Position numbers and translations under genes: made by a program. This document shows, in pieces, positions 8,646 through 56,776 of a stretch of 64,000 nt of DNA. The DNA is taken from the NCBI GenBank assembly GCA_002633005.1, contig NMRA01000066.1, positions 248,001-312,000 of the forward strand. The letters run 5' to 3'. The notes beneath the pieces were generated by a model. That model was not told the DNA's origin. It was given only the letters and a program-made list of their open reading frames with translations, and did no database searches. The DNA comes from Phoronis australis (lineage: Eukaryota; Animalia; Phoronida). The stretch's first letter is position 1, and every line of letters begins with the position of its first letter.

Positions 8646-8715
8646 ATGTTCCGTCCGTGTTGTCTGGTAGTACTGTGGTCACTATTTCTCTTCGTCGGAT
8701 TGTCAACTACACAAA
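8646..8715 (+). CDS. Gene A exon 1: signal peptide MFRPCCLVVLWSLFLFVGLSTTQ
   Basis: Acceptor atttcag ends at 8637; ATG in ACCATG context; hydrophobic core; donor gtaagt at 8716, phase 1. Confidence 0.75.
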
Positions 8716-23700: not shown

Positions 23701-26700
23701 CAAAACTAATAAGTGTGACCTTAGGCATGTAGTATATTTTCAGAAATCACACGCGTCGACTTTTAAGTGGTACATGTATCGATCGTGTAAAGCGTCACAT
23801 TTGACGAATTTACTGTTTCTGAAATAAACTGCTATGCAATCACGAGGCAACATGTACTTTGCTAAATGTTTCTAGATTAGGTTTTCATTTGGTTGTTGAG
23901 TTCTAAGTTGCTACCAAACCACACATACATGTAGAAAAATCATAGAAGCATAGACTTATCACCCTGCTTATTCGATTACCGGAGATAATGCTTGAATGGG
24001 GCCATGGCATAACATTGCCGCGAAGAATATTTTAAATCAACAGTCTTTTGATAAATTGAGGCAAAAGTTACCACTCCTTAACGATATTTAATGAACTGCT
24101 ATGGATATTGTAAGGGTAACGGATACGTACCTAAAGTGACTTCATGACTTGATAACGCTCAGTCCGCAAATTTACCATAACAGTTTTTGGGGAAATACCA
24201 ATCATTCAGGGCTCATTTACTTTTTATTTTTCCATTCAGGCGAAAGATACTTTGTTGGGTGGTTTCTAATGCCTAACGCAAGGTTTGAAGAAAGTCACGT
24301 CTTATATAACTGGTTTGATGGGAATAAAGCCAGACCTCAAGAAGAACAAGAAGCAGAAGGAATTATAAGGAGTATTACTAATCAGGCTCTGATCAAGGCA
24401 TACCCACGGATGGTCTCCTTTTTTAGAGACACAGTTACATTATTCGATAACACGTGAGTACTGGACTCGGCAACTCGCGGCAAGGTCGAGATACATGCAA
24501 TTGTCACTAGGGCTTTCTAATTTTCACTGCTTTCATGACGGAGAAGAATAATTGTACATTTGGTGTTATTCTATGGCAATTGTTTCAGTACATTTAACGC
24601 GTTTTTCTACATGCCTTCCAGTAGTACAGTGTATGTTCTTGTCCTAACTGGTTGCTGTCTAAATATTTTGGTAAAAGGAGACAAATGTCAGTCTAAGTGA
24701 TTTCATCTAACTTGAGGGTGTGGGCTCTGTCCCGTAGTGTTGCAACGCATGCAAATATGTTTCTAACTTTGCCGTTAGTGTTCCCGATAAATCTCGCCTC
24801 AAATACTTCCTCGTTTAGTGTGTTACAAATTTCACGCTGTGATTAGTTAGTGATGTTTGCCCGCAGAGTACAATATTTACCTACTCTCCGAATTTGCTTT
24901 GCGTTGACGAGGTTCGACATATGTCCCGAAAATGAATGGGTACTCGAAATCTCGAGTTTTTACTCCAGTCAGCAGCTTGAGTCAAGTGCAAACTTGGACA
25001 AAACACAAGTATGCCATAACCATAATTTAGTTGGGTTCGAATTAAATAATTACAGTTCCCTTGATATCGTATTAACATAAAACGGAAAGTGTCAAAAATA
25101 ATTTCGAGTTCGTTTCGAATACGAAAACCAGGCCTCGGACCCAGTTCAAAACTAGGTGAGAGTATTTTATAGGTTCAAGAAAAGAAACTTTGAAACGGCT
25201 TCACCGCAGCAGCGGTCTAGATTGCGATTTATGGACTTGGAAATACTCGTTTCGAACTCAGATACACCTTGTAAATCTTGATATTTCACGTTGCAGAACA
25301 TTAGGTCTTGGAGTACACTTCAATTTTACTCTTCGCTTGAACTTACTCCACGAGCCAGCTGATCTGTCTGGTCTGTTAGACACGCTCCAAAGTGCCATGT
25401 GGTCATACGGTGGACAAAGCATAGACACTCAAACTATTCGCCTCCTTTCGGCAGGTACGGCAATGAACAACACTAAAAAAGCAGGGCTGGCGAGCGTCCA
25501 GTAGACCTAGTTCTTTGCCAGAAAAGCAAGATCTCGCAAAATCATGCGAGTGAAAAGCGAATGTTTCGCGAGTATGCTCCTAAGCTTACTACCATGTCGT
25601 GGCAAAATGACGGCTACTGAAGCGACTTGGTTGTTGGGTTATAAAGCGTTTGGAGCGTTGAATTGTGGGATTGAAATCAGTGTTTCCTTTCCATAAGCAG
25701 AAACTGATGTGATTCGCCATAGGTGCAAGCTAACGTTTTTAAGTCTACGGAACGCAGACCTAAATTTAAGGACGGTTTGTGTCGGTACATGTACATACAT
25801 GTAGAACATTTCTTAATAATGGTGCCTGTTCGGCACCTCCACACGACATGATCTATTCAGAAAATGTCAAGAAGCCTTGATTGACTCCTATTTAATATTA
25901 CACAAGACTGCTGGAGACAGAGGAGCAGTCCTTTATGCAGCGTACGTCCTGGGCGTCCAAATGGACGCCCTAGCACTTATCTGGATGCCCTGGCAAGGAT
26001 GCCCAATGTATCATTTGGACGCCCACTGTCAATAGGAACCTTTCAAGTTTGGACTTGCACATTGTAATGAATACTAGGAATCCTCTGAAGGCTCACAGTG
26101 GGGGCTCTTTTTTCAAAGCAGGAAGAAATACATGCATACAATGCATATACAAAGTATATGCATTGTTGCTATTTTGACACTTGATTGACAGCATTATAAA
26201 AGTCTTGGTCTACACGTTTTTTTTAGTAAAAACGCTCACCATAGAAGGCTGTTTTATAAACTTAGACGTAAAAACCTTGATCTATGCATTTTTTGTAAAA
26301 AAATCTGTGTGTTACTGTGTTTGGGGTATTGCTGTGGGTGGGGGGTTACGCGTCAGAATCATGGACGCCCTGGAATATTGGGAACCCCATTTGGGACACC
26401 CTATTTTCAAAATCCTGGATAAAGGCCTGCAGAGGAGGTCAGTTGTATTTCTATAGCAATGCTGTTACGCCGAGACTGCGTAGATTTGCTTTACATCGCA
26501 TGCCGGGTACCCAGAAATTAAGTTACCAGGCGCTCATGGAAAAAGTGTTGCTGCGCGCTGGATCGGGGTAGTCCCTGATAAGTTTAGGTCGACGTCATCG
26601 TTGGACTGACACACTTGTAGGGTAGGTTTCTATTGCGTGATCACGGTGCGAACTCTTAGCGTAGTATTGCGCGGATTTGTGTGAGATTGTTTATTCAGGA

Positions 26701-29700
26701 TAAAACCTATTCATTTATGCAACTAATCACCAATAGGGTTAGGATAAAATTAATTAAAGATGGCATAAGAAGAACGAATGCATACAATTAAAACACTAAA
26801 AAGAAATTTGGTCTTCCTCCACACTTTACTATTTTAGAAGAAAAAACATAAATCTCACTTGCGCAAAAGTGCAAGTTAGTAAAAAAAGTATTATCAACTA
26901 TTTCTAGACTGTGATGCGTCCGTAATTACTTGACAAAGCCTTTTCAGCAATTGTGAAGTAAGAATGTAAGATCAACATTCTGCCTCAAGTACGTTTTAGT
27001 CACTTTCATGATTCAGGACATCAGAATCGAGATTGTTCCATAGCAAATCACCAGAGTAGAAAAGGATTGTTTACCAATGCTTGGTTTACTTCACTTTTTA
27101 TCTTGCAAACTGAAATGACTGTGGGGTATTTTGTTATGTGAAAAATATGAACGCTCAAAAGCCAAGCCAGTGACCCAATTAGACGATTTGCTCTAAGGTT
27201 ATACCCGGAGTAACTGTGTGGACCAGACTGATATTTTCAGTGTCAACAATTTTTGATAGACTTGCACCATATCTCGTATAAGACTCAGGTTTGGCGTGTT
27301 AAAATGAGTCTAGGTTAAGAAAATTCATGGTAGTTAGTTTCACGAGTCGAGCTAATCTTAAAATAATTATTTCCAGAATATTGCTATCCCAAAATGATGA
27401 CTGTTGATGGACAAATTATGACCTTTCCAACGTCGTATGCTGGTACCGTGGCGAGTGAACAGATTTGCGGCACAAGTAAGAATTGTCTCAAATTGTTGTA
27501 TTGACTTACAAAGGTAACATGCGTAGACAGTGCTACGTGTTTAATTCATGTAGGCTAGGAACCACCGTATTGTTTTCAGCGCCTGCTTGTAGCTCCATTG
27601 GTCACTTAACACCGCCAAGCCACTTGCCGTCACATCGCACTTGTGAACGTTCTGGTGAGTTCGTTCTCTCGTTACAAGATTAATTGGATATCGTGTTAAA
27701 CAAGCGGCAAACAATCCGTCTGATCAACGTTCTCGCGCTTCACTACCTTGCGCTGAACTTTCGGGAACGGGTTCATTGCTAATTAACCTATCGCCAGGAT
27801 TTTGAGTGACGGCTTAACTGACCAATCAGAACGCAGCATTCTTGACACACCCTCGTTCTCAAGCCGACATTTTACCCGACAAACAACACATTGCCGGGTA
27901 AAACTTGTTCTTTCTTTATCGACTTTTCGCAAGGGGCGGAGCTTGCTATAGGCCAAGTGTTGCGTACACGAGTCCACGGTTTCGAGTTGGGCACCAATTG
28001 GATAATTTTTACCGTCATGACACTGCAGGACTGCTTGGACACACAAACGTTCAGATTATTAATGGAGTTAGCTTTTCATCCGTGGTACCTCGGCTTCTGT
28101 TGTCAACCGATGGCGTTGACATAGTTGCCGGTGTGTTGGTATTAAAGTGGAACTTGCACGCTAATTCCTTATCTATGTGATTGTTGGTTAAATTAGCTAG
28201 TTAAACGCAACTGATAGCGACGAGGTGAATATGTTTGAAAAATGCCAAATATTTTTATGAACGAGTTTTGTGTCGAAAATAATCCACCGTAAACCACTCA
28301 ACCGTATCCAGTAAGTATCGTGACGTGATGGTGGGGAATAACACTGCGTGATGTGGCTATATGAGCCCCCAAGGTACGTCATTAGTCCAAACGTCACCTG
28401 ATTGCAGATTTTTTTGTTTTCACATTTACAAGTTGTCAATGAATACAACTGCACTTCACTTTTTTCAGCGTAGGTGACATTCAAATAGCGTAGTCGTTTA
28501 GTTCCTTCTATACATTAGCGTAATAAAGGAGCATGTAAATACATCTTTAAAGGAGAATGTCACCCGCTTTAATTAGTCGTTTTTGCCGTCTTAATCGGTC
28601 TATATCCACATCGCCTCGCATACGGTCGACCTTACCTTGCCAAGAGGTGTTGCGTTAACCTGTGAGGAAGGTGAGAAACGACGCTAGCGACGTCAGTGGT
28701 TCATATACAGAGTGAATGCCGCTATGTTGCGGTGCATCGTTCCCGCTTGTCCGAACTAAGCAGCTCCGAGGAAAGTGGGTATATCGTTTTTTACTTCCTC
28801 GAGAGTCCGAAATGGTTAGGAAGTGGCTCATGGTAATGAAGAATGAAATGTACGCTGTAAATAGCAAGTATGAGGCCGTGAAACATCTCCGTGTCTGTGG
28901 CCTGTAGACGTCTCGACAGTGCCTGACGAATGAATGCCGGCTTACCAAATAACTCCCTACGTTCCGTTGTCTGAGCTTCTTCACGGCGCCTCTCTAGTAT
29001 TTCTTCATCACTGTATTCCTGTTCGAATTGATAGCCTGTAAAACTTAACGATCCACCTGCGAAGTCGGGACTGATGAGCTCTAGCTCGTCCTAAGTCGGG
29101 ATTGCGAGTTGCCATCGTTGGCGTTTATTACTGAGCGATCTGTTTCAAAATTGTTCTCACCCTAACCAATACTTATGTAAAACTGAAACAAAGTCTGTCT
29201 CATTAGACGCAATTTGTAATGCCTTTGGAGTGTTCGTGAGTGCAAATGATTTGAGAAGCCAGCAATGAATAAATCACTGCGTTACATGGGACACCTAGGC
29301 CGTGTGAGCTCATACTAATTTAGTTTTTGCTGACAGAAACTGTTGTGAAACAACTCGATTTCCATCCCAAGGCCAGGTGTTAAGGGAATCTTTGTTTACA
29401 TTTACATTACTCAAATAATGATTGTCAATGTACGACTTCTGCCCTGACGGTGCTGTGGCCAAGAAAGCGGAACCTGACTTCGCGGTCCCCGACGAGTAAG
29501 TAGATTTGCAGTTTCGTGGCTAATTCACCAACCAACATAATCAGGTGCACATTACTTTGGGTCACTATTTTAGTATTTTCTTGGCTGGAAGTTTAGTTTC
29601 CACTGAACTTTGGGTGGTTTATGTTTGTGGCGTCTGATCAGTTTCCGAGCCACTGGCGGGGATAACGCGGAGTCAATCCGGCCGGCCGCGACGGACCTGA

Positions 29701-32700
29701 TCGGGCTCCGAGCCACTGCCTGGCCAGGCTAACAAGCGTTTTGTGTTTAGAACTCAAAAAATCACAAGTCTAAACAACACAGATCTAGGTTCTCCTGTCT
29801 GTATCTCACGGAAAATACTTTGAAATTAGCTCCGAACAGACCCCAAACTCCTGCTACGGACCTTATTGGCCTGCCGAACCGTTGTAGGCTACGGTGTGTC
29901 CAAATACCAATAAATCCGTAAGAGCGAAATAAAACAACACGTTTTTATAAGAACTCGGTGTATTTGTAAGGGTTTTACATCGAAGTTTGATGACTTATTG
30001 GTGTTAAACGATGACTTCAAGCGATAAGCTGACACCAGTAACCCGTGTTGTAAACTGCTGAACAGACTGCGTGTGAAACCGATGACGTCATTGGATAATT
30101 TCAACACCTCCGTCTGCCGTCAGGTGTCAGGTAACGCAACCGTACGTGTCGTTATGGAGTAGAACTACTCGATCTAAATTGATACAAATTAGTTTGCTTT
30201 TTGTGTGGCATGCTCCTTTAAGGCTTTAAAATTTTTTATTAAACCTGCAAAAGTGGGCGGAACCATATCAAATCTTCAAAGGGCATGCAGTTGTAATGGG
30301 GATATCACCCCATTATCAAACATTATACAATGAAATTCCAAAAAAAATATCTGCGGGATTCCTGGGCCGAACTGTGCGGTTTTGGATGGTGAAATGAAGC
30401 TATGCTTTAGAAATGGTACAATTTAAAAAATTCACAATACAAATAGCAAGAAACTGTTTAACCAAAGTATGTACAACAATAAGATAGGCGAAGCAGTTCT
30501 TACCTTTACATGTAGACATGTGGATGAATGAGATATCTATGAGTACCATCTAATAAAATTGTCCCCGTTTGTTGGACTTAGAAGCTGAAGAAGAGCTCTC
30601 CTGTGTCATTTGGTAAGATTTAGATAAATACTTCCGTACGTCCCTCACGGTTTTCACAACTTGCACAGCAGGTACTTCTCTAACGCGTGCGTGTACGCGT
30701 ACAGCGTAGAGAAACTATGCGCGATAATCTACAATGTGCTCGATCATTGGACTAAATATGTTAAAATGAGACATTTATCAAACATAGTTCAAATTGTAAA
30801 AAAGAAACTAATAAATTTTCAGAAAACCGAAATTAAATCCGTTAGACAGACACTACTTTTTGTGTGTGAAACGCTAGAAAATTACTTTGTTTACTCATCC
30901 TAATTGAAAATTCATACGAAGTCACTGTTTCAAGTTGAGCATGCGCAGCGCTTGCGCAGTCACACTGTTAAGACCTAGGTAGAATAAACGATTCGATTTT
31001 TGAATGTGCGCTTAATCGGGACACAGAGGTACAACCGGCAACAATTGATTTTCAAATGGATTGGATTTCTGCAGCACTCTCTAGTGGTTATTTTGGTCTC
31101 GACAAGTCGTCCCACTCTTTTTGAGAAGCGTTTCCAGATGTCTAGAGAACAAATTAGCAAATTACAATGAATTTGGACACAAAGTTTTGTGACAACAATG
31201 TGCTGGGGCGGAATTTTCTCCTGCAGCACCCCCTAGTAATCATTTTGTTTGGTGATCCTGCTGTAGAGAATTCCTTGTCGTGTTTTGCCCAAAATTTGTC
31301 TAGGGCGATGAATACCACTTTTCAATCCACCCCTACTTCGGGACCAGGGTCTGGTATTTTCAATATAGGATATTTAATCTCAGGGCTCTTCCACTAATCA
31401 ATTTTGAGCACATTTGCCCTCTCTCTATGCCACAACTAAAGAAAGAAAGTTTTTCCGTGTGATATATAGAAAAGCGATTGACGGATCTCAGTGGAACCTT
31501 GACACAGCGGTAAATGCATGTGGCGGCAATGTGTTTGTACCACTCAATTTTCAGGCCGATATAAATACTACAGCATCCTCTTATGGACGATTCATTTCGA
31601 AGATAAAGGCAGATACCAGCTTGAAGTGATTTCTTTATGAATAAAATAGACTAGATCTGCTGCTCTCTGGGTGTCCTGTGCTGTGCCCCTTTCTGGTGTG
31701 TTTTATTTCTGTACTGCAAATGTTGAAAACTGCATGTTTTATAGTATTTCATTAGATGTAAGTTTTACAACGTGATATAGGTTAGCAATACCCCTTTTCT
31801 AAGTTCTGACTATTACAAGTACCCCTTGTGGTCACATTTTAGTCTCTTTGTACCTTACATGTAAGCCCTCTGGTTAGAAACATATCGTTTTCGGTGTACA
31901 GTGCGCACATATCATCGCGTCACGTCCATGGTCTTGTTACATTACAGTATATCCTTTCAGCTGGTCAACCATTGGGCCTGTTGAAATGTGTGGGTAACTT
32001 CACCACAGGGCTGTCTTGGGTCGGTAGTCCACAAGTCATTCCTTGCGATGAACAAGAATCAGCCGTTACCGATCGTCTTAGAATATTGTCGCAGGTGATT
32101 AATAGACCCAGACATTATACTGATCCTGTCGTTCTATAGCGTCAGTCTGAGGGTATAGTTTGCAATTACACATGTGTAATGCTTTCCGATTTGCATGCCA
32201 GTCAGCGCCATTTTTTGTTAATGCGCGATTGAAAACTGCGAGACATTTCATTGAAGAAGAAAGAATGTACAACTTAGAGTACACGAACAAATTACACCAG
32301 GCCTCAGTTAAGACGGTTGCATATTTAAGGGTGCTTCAAAGTGGTTTACAAAAGCAGAGATTAAATGTTATCAATGACTTTGGTTTCTTGTGGTGAGTGT
32401 AACAGGGCACTGAAGTTTTTTAGATATATTAGCACACCGCTTTTGCATTATATCCAGCTTTTCATTCTCTCCCTTTGGTCCATCTTCATTAAGACCGAAC
32501 TCAGTAGACGGGTAAGAAACACGTATGCACATTGCTCGGGTGGGTGTCAGTAATGTAAGGACTTGGTCTATCAAATCGGAGTCCGAAGTCCAAACCAGTG
32601 ATCTACACGTACACACTTGCTAATTTTACGTCTAGTTCTTCACAGAACCCAAATGACGGTCCCATTTTAAGATTTTGAAATAGAAATCAGCCAACCTGTC

Positions 32701-35700
32701 ACGAACTTACGTGCAAACAACAATAATTTATTTATGTTTACGAAGGCAATCATAACAGAACGAGTAGATTCTCATTAAAATGTGGTGCCTACTCAAGTGG
32801 TTCCTATTCTGGGTTTTGACCAAAACACCTCATCGTGAGATTGTGGGTAACATAGGTGTTGGTCTCTGTATATCTGCTTGGTCTTTTTTAAAAATGTACA
32901 TTGTCAACGTTTACTGAATTTGCTAATTAACTGAATTTTTTGCTTTTGATATTTGGACATATAGAATTAATGATCCTTGGCATGCGAACTGAAGTCGAGA
33001 ACTGTGTGCACTGAATAAGTAGAGTGCAGTTATTGATAATCTTTCAGTTTCAAATTTTAATCGCCCTTAGGCCAGTTTAGGCCTTGATAAAACATGTCCC
33101 TCGTCTAGAAAGTGCTTCCTTTTCTTCTTGCATTGTAGTATCATGCGTCACATATACCTTATGGTTCAACTTAGTATTTTAGCTTTCTAGAGAACTCTTA
33201 TTACGACTCCTACTTGGAATTTAAGAGCTGAGGGCAGGGTGTACTGGTGTAACCAAGCATTCAATTTATTTCAGTAGAAGCTTTTTACACAACTCTCCTG
33301 ATTTTTGTTCAACCATCCTTTACAGTATGTAATAGTAAGAGCTTACGGTAAATATAATAGCTTGTAAAACGGATTATGAAATGCGCTTTTGTGTGTCTTT
33401 TAGGTTGCTATCAATTTTTCGAATGTGGAGTCCGTGACAAAGGAAGCTGCGGATTTAACATCGAATGCAACAGAGTTAAACTCGGCTGACATCGTATATG
33501 TGTCGATAATAATTGACCACGTTTCCCGGTTGACTAGTATCTCTCAGAAGGTAGGTATCGGTGCTCCAGGTGGAGCTTTTTTGCTCTGTGGTAAAGTGTC
33601 GTCGAGCGTCATTGTTTTGTATTGCTCTCGACGTTTACCCACTCACGTGGAGCGAGGCTTACTTGGAGGTAATGGTTGGGTTTGTGAACATGCACTACCT
33701 ACATGTAGCTGTGAACCCAATCGGTTAGTTCTTCCGAACAGGTTTGGTGATTTCGGAACGACCCATTCTCTCCAGTATTTGCACAGGGTCCTTCAGGATT
33801 TAAGGGACTCCATGTGTGGTTTGATTGAAGGTTCTGCGGTTGTTCTAAGGGTGAAGTAATACTCAACGGGGAATGGACCGACAGGGACTCATTTAGCATT
33901 TGAAAAGTGGGGTCCAAATATGTGAGATTGGCACTCGTCAAATGCAGGGATTCCGTGTGAGGTCATGCTGATATCACAGTAAAGAAAGGTATTCTCCCGA
34001 AAAACATGGCTGCCAGCATGTGCCGATAGTGTGTCATTTATGGTAAAAATAGGCGGTAATGGTTTGTGATCTTGATTTATGTCTGAATATTTATGGCATT
34101 AAACAACGAATTGTAGGTTTCGATAATTTTTTTATCAGAAATGTTTTGTTTCCTTGTTTAGCAGTCATTTTGGCTTAGCTTAACTTGAAACTGGCCTCTT
34201 TTTTTTCTCTTGGCCGTGCTGTCCGAGCTGTCATTGTTTAAAATTTACTTCCCCGTGGATGGCCATAATGGGAGCTAGATGAGTCCCTGTGGACCGATAC
34301 AGTCGAAAAATTCATAGTATTTGTGTAGAAGAAACGTTAAAGGTTTTTCACCTCACTGTGATCGTCTAGACGTGTTTCCAGCGTGTACTGTGTTGTGTGG
34401 TCTTTTAGTTGAATAGGAGGATTGAATTGAGTGTTTCCGTTCCAGTAGCGGATAGTTTTTGTCGCAAGTGAAAGCTGATGTCTTGTGGTTTGCGCGACAC
34501 AGTGGACCTGGGTGTTCACGAGAAATCGCCAAAACATGACTGTGATCCTGCTGGTTTCATGCATGTCCCCTAGGGGGAGGCGGACACGCAAATATCGCTT
34601 ATTTTCCTCGGGAAATTTTTTTACACCGAGGCTGATTAACTTGTCGAATTGTCAACACGTCGTGCTTTTTACGTAAACAAAGGGGCATGACTGGTGGAGG
34701 AAGTGTAAATGTGGATGTAGTTTCTCATATCTTGTACAGTAATGTAGACCAAAATTGCCACAATATGCCGTTAGTTTTCATTTTTATATTATACTGCAGA
34801 AAATTTCAAAGTTGATGTTACTCGTGATATTCCGGTGACTTCCGTAAAAACGTGTCAGAATTCTGACACATTTCATTTCCCGCAACCAAGCCTCAAATGG
34901 TTTTAAAAAACGATCAGCGCCATCGGCTTGGGGACGCGGCTGAGCGTACCGCGCGATCACACCACCTTCATTTGTGGGTGTTTTGCTTCTAGTCAAGTAG
35001 TACACGAGATTACGTCATTTAGCCCTTTGAAAACAACCAGATTTCATCGGATATATGTTTTAACCTGTCTTGCCGAGACAGGTGCATGTCTGGACACAAG
35101 TAGTACTAGTAATTATATTTTTTACAAACTTAGTTTACACCTGAGAGAGAACGAAACGCATTTGGCGCCTATATCTCGTTTCAGATGTCGATCGACTCAC
35201 TAATTCCCACAGCGGTATCGAGTGTATATTTTGACGTAGTCAAACACATTGTTAGGCTACCTGGACTGAGAGCAGTGCAAGTTTCTTATTGTACTATGAC
35301 TGATATGCCTCCAACCCAGTCCTCACAAGGTGATCGTAATGCTTCTATAGAATACACTTAGCCAGTCTGCGTTCCGTAGACTCCAGAAAGTCGCGGAAAG
35401 GCAAAATGTTGCAACTGACGTAAGTCCTTGCGATTATACCGCCGGGAATTACAAGCGAAGCACATGATCACACTAACTTTTATCGTCTTGTTTCTGCGAA
35501 CCCACTCCAGGTTGACTTGACTACAAGTGACTCATCCAGCTAGTGAACCATACGCAGCGTACATGTAATTGTACAAGTTTCCCTCTGTGTTGCAGGTAAC
35601 TAAATACGTCCTGTTGACCTATAACAATGTTATGGACTCTGACACGCTTGTCGTTGGAAGTTCCCAGAGAGTTTACAATGCATCGTCAAGGTATGATATT

Positions 35701-38700
35701 CGCTGAATGTATTTTATATTTCTTGTACCGCCCTTGTTCCTAGGTACAAAACCATGGAATAGGAATATTATTTGTGAAGATACTTTTGCAGAGGTCAAGT
35801 GTGAAAGATTTCTAAACGAGTGACCATTTTCTTTTAAACTACATGTACAACCTCTGATGTGTTTGCTTACTAAATGTTCCTGCATTTTGCTTATTTCAAA
35901 AATTCATGATAGAAAACGTGCTAATGTAATTGGCACGAAAGACCCAAGTAAATGGAAAGTTTAACAAGTAACGTTTTTTGCGACTTGCCGAAGAAATATA
36001 TAATTGACTAATTTTGACATTACAACCTTTTCAGATTAACAAAAGTTTTGGAATACGTTAGTAGCAAGATACCCCTCGGTGATAATTCGAGCTTTGTAGA
36101 GGTTCTGCCCAATGTTGCCTTAGCTATTTTTGACCAGGGTGTGAACACGACTGCCCTCATCCGTGGTGTCCAGCTCGTCAGCAGCAGACACGGCAACGGG
36201 ATGAACGAAACCTTGGTACAGCCATTGTTTAATGCTCGTGCAAATCGAGACATCGACTCTTCAGATATAACCATCGCTCTTCCCGCATCTGCAGTTGAAC
36301 CAAAAGGTTTGCTAATTTTTTAAATTGTGCTTTTTGACTCAATGTGCCTTGATTTATAATAAGGATCTGCGAAACACTTGCAGCGAAAAGTTTTTGCTCA
36401 GGGAACGGAAGCAGCAAATTTGCTACCAAAACATTCAACATCCCAGCCTTGCCAATCCGATTATTTTAGAGATAGATATTTTGATTTATACCACAATATT
36501 AGCGTCAAATGGCAGATACAACCGTGTAATAACCCATAAAGTTATCTCACTAGGGAGATAACGATTTAGCGGGAAACCGAGGACAGGGTCGAACCCGAGA
36601 CCCTAATATTGCTGGTCGCCGACTTTACCACTACACCATGCAGCGACTGACGTCATCAAGAGTGAAAATAGAATACTAAATGAGCACGCGCAATAATCGC
36701 ACGTTCAACAAACCGCATTGTACTGTACTTATACGCTACGAAAAATAAGACACATAGTTTCCATAAAAATGATATCTTAATACGGTGTCCTCTAACTTGT
36801 AAATCACCGTTCTCTAGTTTGAATGCGGGTATCGTGTCGTCAGGATCTTTGACTTGAGAATTACATTCAGTTACCAGTAGTAACCTACTTTAGCAGACGA
36901 TAATTTCCCGGTCGAAGCTTAGCGTGAAAAAAAACGTGTTATAAGCTATAATAGTTGGTAAACCTTAATTTATAAATTCAATATATTTCTATAATATTTA
37001 AGTTTTCAATTGGTTTTGAGTAAAGCATTATTTGACAAAAATAGCCGGGCTTTTCTTAAAAGGTCACGACCTCCGACCCCGGGCCTCTGACATAGAAAGT
37101 AGTTACAAAGCCATGGAGAGTCAGAAAAGGTAAATCGATTCATTGCAATGTTTCTCGTTTAGTATGTGGCTAACGCTTCTCGGGCGATAATTCTCCAAAA
37201 TCCACTCGGGCTCTAGATAACGGGGGATAACGACTTCGCCATGTAATAATCTATATTTATATGCTAGCAAGGTACCGAGAAACATTGACGTTTAACTGTC
37301 GTGATTTTGCGTGACTTTGCCACTTAATCTCCTTCCGAGAGGCTTGCTCTACGGAAAGCACCCCAAGTAATTGAGAACTGTGTTGTGCAACTTCTGAATA
37401 CAAGGCTTGACTAAATGCAAGCATGTATGGATCACAAATCTCATCTTTAGAAATAAATAGAAATGTCTTTTTCCGCTCAAGTATCAATGTGAGATTAGTT
37501 TCTTTTGTTTCACTTCGATAAAAAAGTTGTTGCTGTGTGTAAAATATTCACATTAACGTGTTTAACAGTTATCCTTTCCGGTATGCGGAACATGGGCCAT
37601 TTTGTCAAGGTTGTAAGTCCGACCTTATCTAAAACAGACGTGACTTCGATTATGATTTGCAAGCAGTTCCTTTGCGAGGATCAAATATCAACGTAACGCC
37701 AGTTGCAACCTTTCTCTAGGATAAAAAACGCAGCTTCTCGTTAGCAATAAAGAACCTACAACCGTCTGAGCTACATCAGGACTTGAACGACCTTTGACAA
37801 AACGGAGCCTAGGTAGTTACACGCAATGCACTGAATCTCAAAAACTGTTAACGCGACAATAGACACAACATACGTGAATAATTTCGTTGTCTTGTGAAAA
37901 ATAAAAGAACTCCAGAATTGGATTCGATTTTGAAGCGAATCGCATTGCCAAATGTCGAATGAGCGGATTGGCTGAAGATGGCAAATTATAACTAAGGCCT
38001 CTTATGATATATAGGACTGTTTCTGGCGTACCAATTCACTAAGTAAATTTCGGATATTGAGTTTATTTCCTGATTTGTTTGTGTGTTTTATCTTAGGTAT
38101 TTTGCATCTGTTCAACGAAACTAAAAACAGCAGGATCGTGTTTTCCCGGAAGTTATTCAGCGTCGATGCTTCGAAGGTCTCGAGTCGAGAGGATTGTGCT
38201 TCTTTGTGTGCTGGAAAGCGGTTTGATGTTTGTGCCAGTTTCAACTTTCATGAGGTATCAAAGGCCTGTGAACTGTTTAACTCATTCTCACAGTATGCAA
38301 ACCTGGAACCTTTGGACGGGTGGTCCGCAAACGTTTATGTCCCAGGTAGGTCCAAGTTTAGTTATGGTCAATTGAAGGACACAGGTCTTTTGCAAAGAAA
38401 TAAAAGCTATAGGTACAACAGATATAGGAAACGTATTCATACAGTTTATTTGCGCCTAAATGTATTTGCGTAGCAGCGCTCATATCCTGTGAAAAACCGA
38501 TGAGCGTCTTTAAATATATTATGCGGGTTATACAAGATATATCGACAACAAAATAATATTCGTTAACATGTAAATTTCCCACTAACCACTGAATTTAATG
38601 TACTAATGATGAACAGACACGATAATCTCCCAGTTCAATGCACGCACACATACAAGTAGTTTGGACAAAGAAAGAGGGAAATCGTCGGCAATTCCGGAAG

Positions 38701-41700
38701 TTCCCAGGAGCAAACTAGCACTCCTAGTGGCTTCATTGGTAGAAAGCGCGAAAACATGTCGTCTGCCGGAAAGTCCATTGGCCTGACGTTAACCTTGCCT
38801 CTCTAGGTTTGGTCATGCTTATCTCAGTTTCGAGTTAACGAAATTGACACGATGTAAATTTATTTCTGATGTGATGCTGGGTCTTTGGAGTTATGCTTAT
38901 AGCCATACAGTGTGAGTTCTCCTCTTGAAATATGGCTGGTGTCGAGCGATTAAAGACGACTTTAACAAGTTTCCTGAACCCATTCACTACAAGGTGTACT
39001 TGCACGAATACCCCATTATGTTTGAAAACGAGGTGTTGCGTCCAAACTACAGTGGCTATGCTTGTTTGGAAAACGGGCGCTTTCTCGTTGGCGTTGTTAA
39101 AATTGATGCATACAAGAGGCATTGTGTCCTAAACAACAATACGCAACAGTCATATTTGCAGCACCACCAAAGTGTGCAAGTTGTGAATAAATGTCAGTTC
39201 ATTCCTGCTTTCTTTAAGTTGCAAATTTACTGAGTAGTGTAACGGGAAATTGCATTTTTCTGCATCTTGATATTCATGTTTGGGCGCATCGTGCCACTCA
39301 GGGACTAAAACCAATAAGATGTCTAGTGTTTTGTTCATTTAAATTCTTAACATGTTTTAAGCTGCATTTTTGCGTGACTAGTGAGACGTAAAACCAAAAA
39401 AAAAAATGATTTTGTTGGGACCATTGACGGGAATGCCTAATTTGCGACAATATAATGTATTCCGCGTGTACGTGCTGGTGGCGAGTCAGTATTTTCCTCG
39501 CCCCATACTGCGGAGGCGTTCGCGTCTCCAACCTTTCTGACTTTAAACAACTTTCACCGACTGCAAACTATCATTTTATTTCACTTTACTTACCTTAGTC
39601 GGTAAAGGTCATCTCTTTAAAGTCACTATCTCCTTTACTTTCGCCTGCTTAGATCACAAATTGAGCTTTGCCAATCGAAAGATATCACTAAAATTATCTC
39701 TTTTCGTAAATTATAGCCATGTACATACTCTCGTTATTTTACTATTAATTGTTTTAAATTTATAAAAAGTGAGCGGACCTTCAGCCAAACCTCATTATTT
39801 ATGCGGGGTTGCCAGTGGAGAGATTACCCATAATGCACACGAATCAGCTGACGGAAGATAAACATGTCAAGCAGCGGTCGAGGTGAGTTAGGTGTTTTGG
39901 GACTTCTTGTCAGCTAAACAAGAAATCAGAATGTACAAATATTTGGAAATCACAGCTTAATTCTTACTAGTAAACAACAACATTAATTTGTTCTGAACCT
40001 CGGTTCTCTCATCTATTTCTGTCGCTATCCCGAGTCATTCGAAGTCGACGTATCCGTGTATTTGTCTATGCCTATTATTACATAATATACAGGCTACAGT
40101 CTCGTGAGTTGTGTTCAGTTTTAAACCTGCAATCGAGTCTTAGTGATTCATGACTTCGTCGAGCTTGGTTGTTAACGTTTCCTCTTCTGGGAGATTATGT
40201 ACAACTCGGAGATGCACGATATCAGTTGCTTACAAGTTTCCTGCGTGACACTGTGATGTTCAATTTCCAGGCCCTGGGACTGCATGGGCAAGTGTGGTTT
40301 ACGATTGAATGCGAGAACCCAGCCCGAAAAATTGGGATGCTCGAATTTCTGGTCCTCGTACTACAAAGCTAACAGTGGACTAAAAAAAACAAAAAAATGA
40401 GAAGGCGTTTACGCAGGTCCCCTGATACGATCGGGTCCGAGCCCCCCCCCCACAGCCACATGTTTTAACTTAAAAGTACTGAGATTAATTAGTGGACTCG
40501 ATATTTCCTCGCGCTCTCTTGCCGTTTTGCTTCTTTTGCGACAGCCAAGGGGGGGGGGGGCGGCCCCCTGTCCCCCCCTAAATCCACCTATGAATTAATC
40601 CAAAACCCAATCCTAAACCAGTAGATGATTTCCAATCTGATAGTCATACAGTGGTTGTCTTTGTACTTGTTGGCAAATAAATCCTACAACAATACAAACA
40701 AAAGTTATAAAAATTGTTCTCATTACTGTGAATGTTGTCACTGAATTACTCTCACTTTAGGGTCGAATCAGTCGCATGAATAAAAGAAGGAATTGAGAGA
40801 CCTAATGTTGGATGTCGCCAAGCAAGACCCCCGCGTCTAGAATTTAGGCTACCAGAGGTCACTTCACTGGATCATTACCCAGCACCATCAGAAGATGCAT
40901 CATGGTGCCCGTGTCACAGGTGTCAAGAAATGCCAACCAGAAATAAAAGTGTGCTGTGGGAAGCAATCTGCTAACTGCGTTTCATTATTACCTGTAAGTA
41001 TTCACTAAACCGTTGTCTAAAAATTTAATCACTACAAAGTTTTTAGTATTGACTACAGACTACATATATCAGTGGGAAACATTTTACAAAATTGTTTAGT
41101 ACTGTTTTGGTCTGCTCTTTTTCATTTTTAAGGTGATTCATATTAATGTCACCAGGACCTCGAAAGACTCCTATAGCTACTTTAGTTTTGAGTCTTCAAC
41201 TAATTTAAACAAATATACAGCCACACAATTCAAATCACTTTTTGAAGAAAAACAAATCTTTGGCCAAGAACTCAAATCAAATCTCAGTAGCAAATCCCAT
41301 CCAAAACCAACCAAATGTCAATTTACAAAAGTATTGGTGAGTTCAGTCTGCAATAATGAAAATAATTCTATACGTTTCGATTGTCCAATATAGGATGTCA
41401 ACCCCAATCAACCAGTTGCTGTTGTATATAATTCATTTACAAGAGACAAATGTTCCTTATCAAATCTACAGTAATGCGAAACCGCACGGTAATATATTTT
41501 ACCAATGCTTTCAGGATTTCCAAGTGTTTTGCCTGGAGAAGGTGTACTTGCCTTCGACAAGCTGCAACGAAATGTGATGACACTGAAGCCAGAGACTGAT
41601 CAGAATGCGTCTAACTGACATCAGGCATACAGAAACTTTATCTTGGGGCAACATGGACATCTTGGAAGACATGTGGACAGAGTTGCACAGTTGTGTTTGG

Positions 41701-44700
41701 ACAAAAATATTCACAGACTTTATTGGGACATACAGGCTACACAAAAATTGTAGCTGAGCACTGAAACCTGCTTGTGCACAATTGTTACTTTGTGAGATGA
41801 AAGCACAACTGTCAGAGTGAACTTTTTATTTCTTAGTCTAGTATAGAAAGTCCATTTGGATTTTAACTTGCAACAAGAACCTAGAGCATTCTTAAATTAG
41901 TTACGGTCATGTAGGGCAACGGCCCCAATTTCGAAAAACCAGTAATGGATTAACTTTTCAAAATAAAGTAAAATACTAAAATCGACTTCCCACCTAGTTC
42001 TCTGCAACAAATTAATGCTCTGTAACCATCGAAAACCCTCAAAACTTGGAGGAAAATTTTCAAAGTCTGCTAAACAGTAAAAGCATGACGTACGCTTTTA
42101 GCAAATTGCATGCAACTGTGGGAAAGGCCACCGACCAAGGAACATAATGTCTAATTTGTGAGATAGGGGTATGAGTTTTTAGTTGATTCCTGCTTTTGTC
42201 TTTCCTGATTAACACCAGTGATGCATTAGCAGGTGACAGAAAGATGATTGGACAAAATTAACAAAACAAGATATCCTTTCAACAGACATAGTCTCCTTGT
42301 TGTTTGGCCATGGCCCATAATCAGAAGTTGCAACATTTTCTGATTTAAAGTTCCATAGCTTTTGCAATGACCAATCACGAGTAATCTGCTACTCATGTAA
42401 CACACCTTACTTACAAGCACAACCTCTAACCCAACAGCATAGCCAGCCAAAATATATATTGTAATGTTCAACACCATCACTCACAAATTCAAGATTTCTA
42501 AATGCAGGTTTTAATATGAATGTGAATTGCCGAAGCAGTAAAACATCACTAAAAACATAATTTTACGTAACAGAGAAGCTTTATGGTGACCCTTGTATAC
42601 AAATATGCCCCTCTCTATGACCCACCTGAAGACAAACCACTGACTACACATTTGGCTGAGAAAATAGTTAAGAATCAAGAAAACTATCCAATGGTAATAC
42701 AAGTTTTAACTTGTAATACCAGTTTAAAAACTGGTATTACCAGTTGTATCTTACTCACCATGTAGAAAGTGTTTCTGTAAATTAAACGCTCCATAAAGAA
42801 ATTGTTTGCACAAAGTTAAGGTTCAGGGCTTGGAATGATCAATGACAGGTGATGTTAAAACTAGGGTCTTTCATAGAGATTTTTGGTATAGAAGTCAAAA
42901 TAATGATCAAAAAAGATACATAAAGAGGAAATTGGAAATACAATAAGAGGAAATCGAAACCAAAAGATAGTAAATCTTCTTAAAAGAGGAAAATAACAAG
43001 CCTTGACAGTTTCCAAATTGACACTACACAAACTGCTCATGGCAGAGTTTGAAGGTCGACGGCCTGACTGAACATGTTAACTTCTGCATAACTGGATGTA
43101 TCCTGACTATAAACCAAACTGTAGTACCAGATGATCCTCTGCAACAAACTAGGGCACATGACTGAATAACACCCAGTTGCCATATCATCTTAAATAACCT
43201 CTGTCAGGCAACTTCTTTCATTGACACATTGACTTCTACTAATGGCAGTCATTCGAAGACGGCAATGTTGTCAGACAACAAGCGGGAGTCATTTTGCTTT
43301 TATTTTCATGGGAGCAGTGCATGTCTGACATGTCTTTTAACCGGGTTTTCACAATCATCAGCTCGCCAGAGCTTTTAAAAGCCTTCACCAGAATAGACAA
43401 CCATCTCCTGCTCTTCTTGTTGAAGATAAGTTGCTCCCCTACAAAGAATAACAATTGTTTCAATGTCAGTGCCAGACACGAAAATGAATGCAGCAGCATT
43501 GATTTACCCTGGAACATGAAGAGTGTGAAACATATGAAACTCTACAAACAATAAGTACATTATGCACCTCTTTCAGTATTTTAGAAACTTTTTCGAAGTC
43601 GTTTCAAACACTGGATATCATGTTTTCGTTATTCAAAATATATAAATATACTACATATAGTTAATTAAGTGATTAGAGTTTCACACATTTCAAGAAGAGA
43701 AAACAATACAAAATAACAGCATTTGTCACAGGGTGGCTGAATTGTTCCCCACCACATATTAGCATTTAGCAGGTGGTTCATACACAATTGAAAGAATAGG
43801 GCGTTCAAAATGAGTTTTCTAATTAATGAAGGCATCCATGACCAATGACTCTTGACTATTTCTATGACCTTAAGTCAAATCGCTGTTATGGTGTGGAATG
43901 TTACTGTGGTCTGTAATAAAGTCTATCCCATCTTACACCATGTCTTAACTTTCTTATTCGGCCAGGACAGTTAGCTTCCAGGGCTGTTGTTAGCTAATAA
44001 AAAATGGTACACTTTACTTGGGCGTCCAAAAGCTAAATAGGGCAACCTACCTAATGTGTCTAAATTTATGTCAGGTTGCGTAGTTGGACACCCTAGATGC
44101 CACCTAGATGAAGGCCTGCACCTGGGGCTGCCGCCCAGGACCGAAGGCCACCCAATGTTCAAAGCTGTGCCACTGCTATGCCTATCAGGATGTGATAGTT
44201 TTNNNNNNNNNNNNNNNNNNNNNNNNNNNNNNNNNNNNNNNNNNNNNNNNNNNNNNNNNNNNNNNNNNNNNNNNNNNNNNNNNNNNNNNNNNNNNNNNNN
44301 NNNNNNNNNNNNNNNNNNNNNNNNNNNNNNNNNNNNNNNNNNNNNNNNNNNNNNNNNNNNNNNNNNNNNNNNNNNNNNNNNNNNNNNNNNNNNNNNNNNN
44401 NNNNNNNNNNNNNNNNNNNNNNNNNNNNNNNNNNNNNNNNNNNNNNNNNNNNNNNNNNNNNNNNNNNNNNNNNNNNNNNNNNNNNNNNNNNNNNNNNNNN
44501 NNNNNNNNNNNNNNNNNNNNNNNNNNNNNNNNNNNNNNNNNNNNNNNNNNNNNNNNNNNNNNNNNNNNNNNNNNNNNNNNNNNNNNNNNNNNNNNNNNNN
44601 NNNNNNNNNNNNNNNNNNNNNNNNNNNNNNNNNNNNNNNNNNNNNNNNNNNNNNNNNNNNNNNNNNNNNNNNNNNNNNNNNNNNNNNNNNNNNNNNNNNN

Positions 44701-47700
44701 NNNNNNNNNNNNNNNNNNNNNNNNNNNNNNNNNNNNNNNNNNNNNNNNNNNNNNNNNNNNNNNNNNNNNNNNNNNNNTAACAGGCTGTATAGACTGTCAG
44801 TCTCTATACACACTGCAAGATGACATGAATTCGGAAAAGAGAGGATTATTAAATGATTATTACTCAAGGATTGCTGTTATGCCTTAGATCACACAATGAC
44901 ACAACAAATCTTAATTGGTTTCAACATCCCTTACCTTGAGTCCCCTTACTTTTACATGAGAAACACTTGTAAATGTGGCTTCTTTGTTTGCTCAAATTAA
45001 TCCACGACACAAGTGGACGAAACCGAGCCCGAGGGCTAAACAAAACAAAAAAAAACAGTAAAATAACGCAAAAAATACTCAGTCAAAGACACCAAGGATT
45101 TTACTACAGGAATATTTTAATGTTGGTGTGCTCTATTATGTACTGTTAGGCAGTAAAATAAATCTACCATAACATTCTGAAAACTTTATGGTTAGCATTG
45201 CTGTAACAAGTGCGCCTCGGAATCCGTTGACGACTTACCTGTCGAGCAAATTCTTTCCTTACTGAGACCGTGCAACAGCCATCTGGGATCACAGATAAGT
45301 CCAGCACCCAAACTGATCTTCATTTCAAACTTTACGGCGGTAATAGTCAACTTGAGGACGATTAGCAAGCCTTTTCAACGGAGGACAACCTAACTTATAC
45401 CGAACGCCTGCCATTACTTGTTTGGTATGCGTGAACTTGAATTTTGCTTAATCTGAAGATCGCGTAAGCGTGAGCTCGTAATTAAACACATTAAAGAAAT
45501 CTTGTGAATATTTTGTCCAATGAGCAAATTTCTGTAATTATTGGTTCCAAAAGCACTTATTTCACCCGTTACCTAATTATAGTAGCTTGAACGTGATTAT
45601 TTGAGTAGGTATTCCGAGTTCACGAAGGCTTGTATACGATCTTGAGATCAACCGAAACTCCAAGTTCATATTCGACACTCGAATCTTCGATTGACACTTC
45701 GTCCAGCATCCATTTATTTCTTGGTGCACCACACAAAATGAAAAATTAAGCTAAAAAAAATCTGTATTAAATTCAGTTCATTATAAAAAAATTCGATGCC
45801 ATGGCGAAGGCTATTATTTGGGCTTAGGTTTCGAATAAAAGTGTTTGCGTAAAGATCCGTTTCATGAAGTTTTTAACAAAAATGAAGCGGAAATAGTGCC
45901 TTTAAATTCAGGAGCACTTAAAAATGCTCTTGGACTTGGTCATATAAAGGTACAACGAAAAATGTCAAAATTAACGAAATTGTTTGAAGGTCTTCACTTC
46001 TGACACTTAACTCTAACTCAGATTACAGCCAACTTAGGTCATGCGAAGAAGAGTGTAAATGTACATGAAATCTTCTAAAACTTAAACTAATATTTGTGAT
46101 TTGTCTGTTCACGTGGAGCATTTTGATCATTTTAGAATGGGAAGCTGGTCAGAAGATAAGTTTCATCCTTTACAACAACTGGAAGCTCTTCCAAACTCCT
46201 TACCAACTGTACGGTAGCTCATCTGGGGATAAACAATGGCTTACATACAGCAAAATTGTCTCGGCCAAAATCAACACAAGATCGGTGAAAGTCGTCCTCG
46301 AAGAACCTCTTGAAGCCACGTTCCTACCACTGAAACGTGTATGTGATAAACAAATGCCTCGTAATCTGTACTTATTCTTCTTTATGCAAGTAACATTTTA
46401 GGTTATTATTAAGTAGGCCGAAACTTCAAATTTTCGGAAATGAAACTTTCAGTAGTGGCGATCAATGATAGTGCAACGGGTAAATGCTGTTATCCCGTTC
46501 AGTTACAAACAGTAACTCGCCATATTAAGAAAAAGAACACCCAGATTCCACACGAACAATTGAATTAAGACCACGGTATTCAAGGATGGCGCTGCCTGAA
46601 ATTTTAAAGATTGTTGGTGGGTTGCTCATTGCACTTGACCAGGGCTCTGTTTCGTGAAAGATGACTTAATGAAATTTGGCCAGTTGGAAACGGAAAAAAG
46701 TTCTCAGCAGTCATATACTCACATCAATATGAAATAACTTTAAGAGGCTGTAAACCCAGATTCGGACGTCAAGTCAACAACTGGTCACAACGTGTTCCTT
46801 ATTGAATGATTTCTGAACTAGGGAAGAAATGGCAGATCGGTAGCGCTTGAGAAAATGCTTTGGGAATTCATCAATATACCAAATTGACCTGCCGTGACAA
46901 GCCAACTTATTGAGCATCATCTCAACCAATTATGAACAGTCAGTTCTTCCTGCATTTAAGGAAACATATTTAATTTTGACAGTTAAGACCAAATTTGTAG
47001 CAGCAAGTGCCTAAATCAAAAGGCGTTTTTTGACGAAAGACTGATTTAACGGTGCTTTAATTAAGAAGCGTTATTTTAAACGAACCACATCATAATTGCA
47101 ACAGTCGATGACAACGATGACCCACCAACGAAGACGATAAACATTACATATGGGGAGATACAGGTACGCTCTTTACTTTGACCGAAAGCTGGTTTGGCGC
47201 CAGTTGTTCTTCCTACAGTGTGAACAACGAGGAAAGGGGTCTTGACTAGACAAGGTGGGAAATTGAGCACTCGATGTTACAGTTATATGCCAGGAGTTTT
47301 AACGGATTGTTCTAAACCCCCTTTGACCCCACAGCCCATGACGAGCTCGTCCCTCGACCCACAGCCCAAACCCCTTTGACCCAGTCTACACAAGATCGAC
47401 TCAATCTGAACATCGAACAAACGCTGACTTGCAGGACCAAAGGGTGGGGCTGTGAGTTCGGGTCCTTTTTCCGTTTTTTGTATTTGCAACTGAGGGAGTC
47501 CATTTGGCAATTTTGAAAGCCAAAAACAAACAAACAAAAAACATCTCGACCAAATCAAATCAGAGACTAACGTTACAAATGTCGTTCCCGGCATATTGTA
47601 ATCTCGCCTGCCCTTCAGTGAATGGCAGATTCAAGCTTCTTTGGGAGAGTGCAAGGAACCGACGAATATGAAATTTCTTCAGTAAGTACAGTTTAAAAAA

Positions 47701-50700
47701 ACAAATTGTTTGCTAAAAAGTATCTCAAAGTTACTTGGAGTATATTGTAGACGACTAGAACAGAACGCAAATAATAAAAATGTGAAATTACACTGTATGT
47801 CCATTCACGTTAACGTAGTACTTTCTCCCTAAGTTTAGTTGAACAGTGACATTGGTAACAGCTCGTGGAACTGTTTTCGTGACAACGATAGCACGCCCAC
47901 AATTCGCGATTTCAAATCAGGTTCTTACGTCACTTTCTGTTTAACCACCTGACTTGAGTCAGAGCAGATTCGCGTGTAGGTAAGTCTTATGGGAAAGTCA
48001 TTAAGCGACGTAATATGTTCGTGGAATGTGTAAAAAGTGCAAAGATAATCTATTGCCTTAGGTGGGTCGTGGAGGTTGTGGGTAAAGGGTTTGTGGGTCG
48101 AGGGGTCGTGGGTCGAGGGGGTCGTATGATCTGGGGGTCGAAGGGGTTTTAGAACAATACAGTTTTAACGTCCAATATAATACATGTTACACATCTTTCC
48201 GTGGGAGCTCCACCATTTTCATGGATTTTTACACTCCGCTTTTAGAGAACCAGCGTGGGTAATATTCCTTTTTACGATAAACTGGCTGGTTTTGGAGTGG
48301 AAAAATAAATCACCCTCTTCAATTGAAATTTAATGACAAACCCTCGAAACTCTTCAAAAGAGGTCTGTTGCAATCCTTCTGTTGAGTCCATAATCCACTA
48401 AGCCAATCCTTTTGCATGAAATTCATAGTAATGTTACCCATACGAAGGAAATTTTGGCGTAAAAGGAACCACACCCAAAATTTCACCGATTATGGGAAGA
48501 TATGCCTTGTTCACTATTGTTAAGCTGACAATTGTTTCTTATTTATTTCTATGTAGCACAAATTTCGTAACGCCTCCATAGTATGCGGTTATTGGGACTA
48601 CGATATTGGAGACTTCAGTCAAGAAGGCTGTTGGTCCAACGGTACAGTAAATGGGCGACATGTTTGCTTGTGTGATCATCTCACAAACTTTGCAGTACTG
48701 TTGGTAAGTTGGCACTTTAAGGATTTGTAGTTTTGCAAGCTAATCTCCAATTAGTGAAAACAAGAATTTAGTCGCTCATCTGCAGCAAACATGTAGCCTA
48801 CTGGAGCTATGTCACTGTGATTGCCATATAGATGTACACTAACCCTGTCGGTTTCATTCTCTCAAGGATGTACACGGGACAACTATTGACGACAGCCACA
48901 AGCTCGCCCTGTCTATCATCAGTATCATCGGACTGTCATTGTCCATTGTAGGACTTCTCTGCACCATTATTACCTTCTTAGCTTTCAGGTGAGTTTGCAA
49001 TTAAAGCTGCATTTTGCTTCCTTTAGCAGGCTAAACATCGAAAATCGAATTGGGCCTTTTATTCCAATAAAATTGGTCTCATAATATTTCCGCTCATTCG
49101 GCAACAAATCAAAATTAAATGAGAATGGTGATGTTTTAAGTCCCAAACCGATTCCGTTAAGAATTCAACATAGCTAAATACGGCGAAATTTAGCTTTAAA
49201 TAACAAATGCCAATACAAAAAGTCCATGCTTGAATACTGATTGAAGCTTGCCAAACATGCCAATGTCAACAATCAACTGTACTGGTCTTGATCAAGGAAA
49301 TGTGCTACGTGGCACTGCATAGGAGATTGTTAAACGGTACTTGAGTGCACGGTACATTGCCCGTGTCTTGTACCAGAGTGTAAAGAGTTGGCGGTTCATG
49401 CTCTATAGTCTGCTACAGACTGATCTAATACATGTAAAACCCATAAGTGTGACAATTAGCAGATGCAAGGTGATGCCAACAACTTCAACTGTTTCCAGGA
49501 AACTTCGCAAAGGCCGTTCTCAGCAGACCCTGTTCAACCTCTCCTTGGCCCTCCTGCTGAGTATGATCGTGTTCTTGGCCGGAGTGGAACAGACAACCAT
49601 CAGAGAAGGCTGTATTACCGTGGCGGTTCTGCTTCATTACTTGATTCTCGTCTCCTTCGCCTGGATGCTGATCGAAGGAATCCTGCAGTATCTAAGATTT
49701 GTCAAGGTGCTCGGAACGTATATACCACGGTTTATGCTGAAGGCATGCCTCCTGGCATGGGGTGAGTAGTGGCGAATTGCCAGTTTCGACTGTTGGATTC
49801 TACGAGGCGAATTATTCAGTCATTGCGCTTCGAAGTTAGTTTCATGAAGAGTGTAGTACCGGTGACTTAATTGAGGGAAGTGGGCGTGGCTACCACAGGA
49901 ACAATCTCTATTCACAACTAAGGACTCAAGACTTATGGACTAGGAGGTAGAGTGTGTTTGTAAAGAGATTTTTTGACAACAAATACAGACGAAAAATACA
50001 TTTTTATCAGTTTCGTTTAAAAGTCTATGTTTTCACGCTAGTGGATATAGATAGGCCAGTTGCTTTGTATTTTGTTGGTGGACTATGTCCATGTACATGT
50101 ATAATTCTTATTTACAGGAATCCCATTGTTGTTCGTTGTAATTCCGGTGGCTGTGAACCCCGACCTGTACGGTGGCAAAGAGTAGTACGTCCTATGCTTT
50201 TAATTTATAATTTTCATTCATATTTTTTATTGATTATTGTCATAATCATTATGCTTCAAATGTTCCTGCGATCGGTGTTTAAACATTTTTAGGAGTTTCG
50301 ATGTGTACTTTATATTTGTTGTATAGCTCTTGTGACCTTGAATTTCGACGTTTTGTTGATTCTTGTCCGAGATATTGGTCTTATTGTTAAGTTGTGTGTA
50401 CATGTTTATTGGTATTGGTCCTCCTCACTTTTCGTTTTATGGTTTCTTCGTAAGTAGCTTGCTGACCAGAACTACGTATTAATACTTGAAATAATCTAAT
50501 CACGAGCGTTCACAAAAGAAGTTAAGTTCAAATTTCCATATGCATAGCTGATTGATTTCTTTCAGTTGTTGGCTCTCGCGTGACCTGTTCTACTACGGCT
50601 TCATGATACCCGTATGTGCCGCCATAGTGGTCAATGCTGTTTTCTTCGTTCTTGTTGTGCGCGCGCTCACCTGTGCTAGAGCCACTCACCTGCAGTCTAA

Positions 50701-56492: not shown

Positions 56493-56776
56493 TCACCATC
56501 GTCCTGGATTTAAATTTATAGGAATCTTGCCTTTACTTAGTTCTTCAGAAGACCGCCTGACATTCGAATTGTACGTTTCACAGTTAACAGAATACGGCCG
56601 ATCCCTTTGTTTGTTTTTGCAAAACAGGCCTCGCCAGGCATTTCGGACTTGTTTCTCACGTAGGTTGAAGAAAATGAAAATGAAGAACCCCTGCAACGAG
56701 TTGCAGACACAGAAAATATATTGGAAGGCTAATCGAGCCTCGTTGATGGCGAGGAATCCAAATACCCAAGTGATCC
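56493..56776 (-). CDS. Gene B last exon: TM6, TM7, tail
   Basis: gtttcag acceptor; GITWVFGFLAINEARL...NSLQGFFIFIFFNLREKQVRNAW; ends NPGRW-stop. Confidence 0.95.

Follow-up and report, generated by a model that had tools for sequence, protein, structure and literature searches.

Architecture of gene A

The window, i.e. the whole 64,000-nt stretch of Phoronis australis DNA that was analyzed, carries two convergent paralogs, here termed gene A (forward strand) and gene B (56493–64000, reverse strand), which share the same exon plan. The exons of gene A from 33404 to 51386 give an open reading of a GAIN domain, a GPS and a seven-transmembrane region (7TM), both with and without an 83-codon exon encoding a PAN domain (38097–38345). 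Subdomain A of the GAIN domain is encoded by the exons 33404–33550 and 35596–35690, assigned by family profile matches in the correct order and by alignment. The following exon (36035–36306), which is 52% identical to its gene B counterpart, supplies the last helix of subdomain A, the first strands of subdomain B and a short helix just before the insert, and the subdomain B strands after the insert are encoded by 46136–46338, an exon found spliced to 48557 in RNA. The preliminary description of this DNA had placed the PAN exon between two GAIN exons of an adhesion GPCR, and GAIN was indeed found on both sides, with the start of the upstream exon corrected to 36035.

The GPS exon (48557–48703; Pfam GPS, E 8.7e-12) encodes an H-L↓T cleavage motif and the tethered-agonist strand, and also contains a tyrosine at the S10.49 position and a Gly-Cys motif; from these signs, gene A is predicted to be competent for autoproteolysis and tethered agonism. 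The Pfam scan was clear for the GPS, while the match of GPR128_GAIN_subdom_B (PF22261) to 46136–46338 fell below its cut-off (E 0.015). The 7TM region and C-terminal tail are encoded by 48867–48988, 49499–49761, 50118–50184, 50566–50765 and 51076–51386, an open model in which the RNA joints 49760/50117 and 50184/50566 were seen. All 46 proteins matched by exon 49500–49760 (53–79% identity) carry the 7tm_2 domain (PF00002).

Subdomains A and B of gene A are collinear with those of 29 relatives. The relative P0032 was modeled as a GAIN-7TM fold matching the structures 6V55, 8OEK and 4DLO, and a corresponding fold is expected for gene A from this relative's model. Gene A has the characters of an adhesion GPCR (class B2), with a secretin-family 7TM, a GPS of the H-X↓S/T type just before TM1 and both GAIN subdomains, and Lectin_C matches in the sequence point to adhesion modules N-terminal of the GAIN domain. 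It departs from a usual, though not defining, trait of the class, in that its GAIN domain is interrupted by another domain, the PAN insert. As for a possible placement in the ADGRG group, the best PDB sequence matches of the relative P0001 were ADGRG6 and ADGRG2, and in a GAIN+7TM tree the rows of fish ADGRG4 and latrophilin were unresolved at the root (support 26).

The N-terminal part (8646–17263) is a tentative model based on Lectin_C and the family profile, with exon boundaries drawn by eye from the sequence. It comprises a signal-peptide-like exon (8646–8715) and two C-type-lectin-like domains (approximately 10617–12959 and 15308–17263), with Lectin_C E values upstream of the GAIN domain of 0.075, 0.022 and 0.00017, one of the three above the cut-off. 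Between the lectins and the GAIN domain, several good-looking exons on the forward strand were tentatively assigned (23404–32094); they have no Pfam match, only 31843–32136 fits the family profile well (E 0.00023), and this part of the ectodomain is left unclassified. The window contains four assembly gaps (8418–8560, 10938–11768, 20984–21008 and 44203–44777), of which the second falls within the first lectin-like region, where an exon could be concealed, and the last lies in the intron that follows the PAN exon.

A PAN-domain exon within GAIN subdomain B

The exon at 38097–38345 (249 nt, forward strand) is a genuine PAN-domain exon. It is bounded by an acceptor (ttag/G) and a donor (CAG/GTAGGT) with crude splice scores of 6.7 and 7.0, which rank first or close to first among the 10 gene A exons scored, and its phase 1-1 frame is open throughout, so that the frame of gene A is kept with inclusion as well as with skipping. 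The PAN_1 profile (PF00024) matched it with 36.9 bits against a cut-off of 21.4 (E 3.2e-9), and the best ESM Atlas match was a PAN cluster (0.95). The description made from the letters alone, i.e. a stop-free, symmetric exon with good splice sites and a four-cysteine PAN pattern, therefore held in each of these respects: the exon contains exactly four cysteines in the predicted pattern, aligning with those of the HGF N domain. A disulfide joining the termini is a feature of six-cysteine apple domains, and this outer bridge is absent here. All 13 PDB sequence matches were HGF N-domain chains, although weak (best E 0.0085), and a fold predicted from the single sequence had a pLDDT of 42. PAN domains in general bind proteins or glycans, and the proximity of their two ends would facilitate insertion into another domain.

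A chance reading frame was ruled out as the identity of this exon by the PAN_1 score, the splice scores and the absence of any comparable symmetric open exon from 100 Markov resamples of the intron. The GC3 of the exon (0.51) resembles that of the neighboring exons (0.43–0.66), as expected of a resident coding exon. No second PAN exon was found in the window, nor were terminal or direct repeats marking a mobile element found around this one. The same interval also contains a second stop-free frame in phase 0-0; only phase 1-1 fits gene A. Just upstream lies a repeat (36355–37576) with high read depth on both strands.

Distribution of the insert among relatives

Gene B is 72% identical to gene A minus the insert over 571 residues, and the two are sisters in the tree (support 100). 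Its introns are much shorter than those of gene A, it has a phenylalanine at S10.49 together with H-L↓T, and its 5′ part extends outside the window. The gene B intron matching the insertion site (60216–61110, about 0.9 kb) contains no PAN exon. The loop between the flanking strands is accordingly 97 residues long in gene A and 14 in gene B, compared with 7–26 residues (median 14) in all 74 measurable relatives; these were obtained from 87 proteins, of which nine were dropped for lack of a GPS pattern (two of them unrelated matches) and four ended before the loop.

The closest database relatives of gene A were molluscan and brachiopod lectin-GAIN-7TM receptors, and such lophotrochozoan adhesion GPCRs (e.g. 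Lingula LOC106166554 and Pecten LOC117317366) are often automatically named ADGRG2-, G4- or G6-like. They share with gene A a collinear arrangement of GAIN, GPS and 7TM, with as much as 45% of 582 aligned residues identical once the insert is left out, and many also have C-type lectin heads. In contrast to gene A, none of the 85 distinct matches has PF00024 or PF14295 among its precomputed domains, in searches that were word-indexed and limited, and with gene predictors that may miss a PAN exon of this sort. When the PAN exon itself was used as query, none of 15 candidate proteins of 145–2000 amino acids had the insert, a weak negative. A HMMER search of 1.84 billion representatives, run with the GAIN exon upstream of the insertion site from both paralogs, returned two matches, both repeat proteins and apparently unrelated, indicating that no close orthologue is on record. 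As no insert-bearing orthologue was found, there is no evidence of conservation of the insert or of selection on it.

The difference in loop length marks the insert as lineage-specific, and its absence from the paralog and from every measurable relative agrees with the initial impression that the arrangement is unusual. The simplest reading of these sequences is that gene A gained the exon once, following the A/B duplication, the alternative being a gain before the duplication and subsequent loss in gene B.

Insertion site and comparison with known GAIN inserts

In the confident model of P0032 (mean pLDDT 80, 43 sequences), the insertion site lies after a four-residue helix (H237–240) and before a strand (E245–252). 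Via a second relative (P0066), the strand that follows the insert could be aligned with the chain of 8OEK from residue 304 onward, which corresponds to ADGRB2 residue 813 with the offset of 509 derived from S876 and H910 in the accessible parts of PMC13062082. By this two-step sequence alignment, the insertion point aligns with the end of the ADGRB2 loop 770–810, i.e. flap 1B; a strand count backwards from S10 suggests that it probably corresponds to the loop numbered s5s6 in PMC11697300. The preliminary description had placed the PAN module in a GAIN surface loop, a proposal that is supported here and sharpened to a loop predicted to lie beside the cleavage groove.

According to the accessible sections of PMC13062082, flap 1B of ADGRB2 is a disordered, poorly conserved insert of 41 residues that adjoins flap 1 at the cleavage groove and possibly adds to the flexibility of flap 1. 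The same sections report that flap exchanges alter cleavage, that flap 1B was swapped only together with flaps 1 and 1C so that its own effect was not isolated, and that F803Y keeps cleavage in L1 (PMC13062082). The alignment with flap 1B indicates that the site tolerates inserts, and judged by its position, the insertion site could influence cleavage or agonist exposure.

A close parallel is human ADGRB2/BAI2 (HormR-GAIN, 8OEK), with a long insert in the same loop adjoining flap 1. The ADGRB2 loop, however, lacks order and is little conserved, and cleavage of that receptor is minimal (PMC13062082), whereas the insert of gene A reads as a recognizable four-cysteine domain on its own exon, in a receptor whose sequence signs of cleavage appear intact. 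PKD1 and PKD1-like proteins also have a folded addition inside subdomain B; these are not GPCRs, and their addition is a family-wide β-sandwich between S9 and S10 (PMC11697300, accessible portion), unlike the mobile PAN module of gene A, which sits several strands earlier and in one gene. A PKD1-type GAIN extension was rejected for gene A, as about 80 residues separate the insert from the S10 strand downstream of it and the S9–S10 linker is short. Among solved PAN/apple modules, the HGF N domain (3HMR) is nearest and likewise has a PAN_1 match above the cut-off and a four-cysteine core; PAN/apple modules are strung in series, in contrast to the PAN domain of gene A, which is nested inside another domain.

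In agreement with the expectation that no such receptor had been described, no adhesion GPCR with a PAN domain in or beside GAIN was found in the literature searched, which included few subscription papers and may miss older invertebrate surveys; the survey in PMC11697300, judging from its accessible part, was built on orthologs of mammalian receptors. Inserts in GAIN domains therefore have precedent, and a mobile binding domain within the GAIN domain of an adhesion GPCR is, within that literature, apparently undescribed.

The same comparison raises the alternative that the PAN domain is a tolerated passenger or a plain adhesion site, spliced in and folded in a permissive loop and leaving the GAIN switch unaltered. 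The ADGRB2 insert described above suits this reading, as do the GAIN loops of more than 50 residues that are reported as frequent in the accessible portion of PMC11697300, and the fact that the insert is known from one gene only. On the other hand, the four cysteines, the frame and the strong splice sites have all been kept, the GC3 is that expected of a resident coding exon, and the insertion point is predicted to adjoin flap 1. We regard a passenger as unlikely, while giving it more weight than the two alternatives concerning splicing that are considered below.

Transcription and splicing of the PAN exon

RNA reads from four runs, three of them stranded, were analyzed at an identity threshold of 88%. 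The PAN exon is transcribed: the two bins that hold it contained sense-strand reads only in all three stranded runs, and its summed depth (9.2) was similar to that of the upstream GAIN exon (9.0). Cross-mapping of gene B reads was ruled out, as the paralogous exons are 67–82% identical, below the threshold, and gene B has no PAN exon.

With regard to the junctions, the downstream join could be deduced from the contig tables of run X1. One contig, number 7 (488 nt, depth 22.5), spans 46133–46338 and 48557–48704 and carries a further 133 nt at its 5′ end, and the sole X1 contig on 38256–38311 has the same depth of 22.5 and a piece of approximately 123 nt whose end falls near 38343. Since a different X1 contig (depth 23.2) is the only one at position 36197, contig 7 cannot represent the skip form. 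The PAN exon and 46136 are thus very probably joined in contig 7, across the assembly gap 44203–44777. Neither 36306/38097 nor 38345/46136 nor the skip junction 36306/46136 was among the 15 of 48 joints listed. Overall, the evidence strongly suggests splicing on both sides of the PAN exon, and we consider it very likely that the insert is present in the gene A protein. Two of five reads of run X4 that share the variants of X1 carry at least 16 other differences, and a divergent allele or a second copy is therefore possible.

The preliminary description had also raised an optional cassette. If such a cassette were regulated, the exon would be included in some tissues and skipped in others, yielding the receptor with and without its binding module. 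In favor of this, the exon is symmetric (phase 1-1), the reading is open whether or not it is included, and skipping recreates the ancestral GAIN domain; furthermore, the PAN exon was found at half the summed depth of the downstream GAIN exon (18.6), which fits 3′ bias but would also fit internal starts or some skipping. Skipping itself nevertheless found little support, as the ratios of PAN exon to upstream exon depth were about 1.3, 0.8 and 1.0 in the three stranded runs (at a low read depth of 2–7 per run), the splice scores are among the best of the gene, and the only listed X1 contig entering 46136 appears to come from the PAN exon. Regulated inclusion is thus rather improbable.

It is very improbable that the PAN exon and the upstream GAIN exon remain unjoined, either because an internal promoter yields a transcript of PAN, half a GAIN domain and 7TM or because pieces of two neighboring paralogs were mis-joined at the gap. 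In favor of such a reading, internal starts are common in human adhesion GPCR genes (PMC11039983, accessible part), 36306/38097 was missing from the joints listed, an N gap follows the exon, and X1 has holes at 36284–36306 and 38097–38218, with no contig on the latter. Against it, such holes occur on undisputed exons too, the phases match on both sides, read depth declines smoothly from 3′ to 5′ through the PAN and upstream GAIN exons, these two exons lie within one gap-free stretch, and RNA appears to link the PAN exon across the gap.

Two further observations concern the RNA of this locus. An intronic element downstream of the PAN exon (40640–43900, forward strand) attracts many reads, including a GT-AG joint at 40993/41515 (75–88 reads per run); it contains a broken cysteine-rich frame with a weak Transpos_assoc match (E 0.089) and probably represents a degenerate transposon copy to which reads from active copies map. 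In run X3, antisense reads cover the 3′ half of gene A (46131–51018; depth 2.5–6.3 per bin), possibly as read-through from the convergent gene B.

Possible role of the insert

The reading we favor, and hold to be somewhat probable as a whole, is that the PAN exon is mostly spliced in and places a binding domain on the flap 1B loop, where a bound protein or glycan tunes the GAIN switch. Exon shuffling into a phase-1 intron that was already present, later than the A/B duplication, is the probable origin of the exon, which is likely spliced in most of the time. The PAN domain would then fold as a small module in the loop predicted to correspond to flap 1B of ADGRB2, and the GAIN sandwich should still fold and self-cleave, because H-L↓T, the tyrosine at S10.49 and Gly-Cys are all present. 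A protein or glycan binding the PAN domain, or a pull on it, may shift flap 1 or the pose of GAIN relative to the 7TM, and the shift could in turn change cleavage, agonist exposure or signaling. The folding of the combined domain, the binding of a ligand and the coupling are each conjectural, and tuning of signaling by the insert is much less likely than its presence in the protein. By analogy, a PAN ligand might act on flap 1 or the GAIN-7TM pose in the manner of the GAIN-targeted antibodies that alter signaling of ADGRL3, according to the accessible part of PMC11615224.

A bolder form of this proposal, which we advance only tentatively and consider doubtful, is that the flap 1B loop has been turned into a ligand sensor, with a shuffled PAN domain on the lid of the cleavage groove and binding itself gating cleavage or agonist release. 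If so, the insert-free sister gene nearby would constitute a natural experiment on the coupling between GAIN and ligand.

For adhesion GPCRs it is not settled how binding outside the cell is passed on to the tethered agonist, and their binding modules are reported to sit N-terminally of the GAIN domain. The reach of the present case is so far a single gene of a single lineage. A naturally occurring receptor that has a predicted PAN module in subdomain B, beside the cleavage-modulating flaps, would suggest that this loop can carry a whole domain, a finding that would be both surprising to a specialist and testable. Gene A, in forms that include or lack the exon, and its paralog gene B make a matched pair for testing whether local binding gates the switch, and the flap 1B loop is a candidate site for engineered sensors or handles in human adhesion GPCRs.
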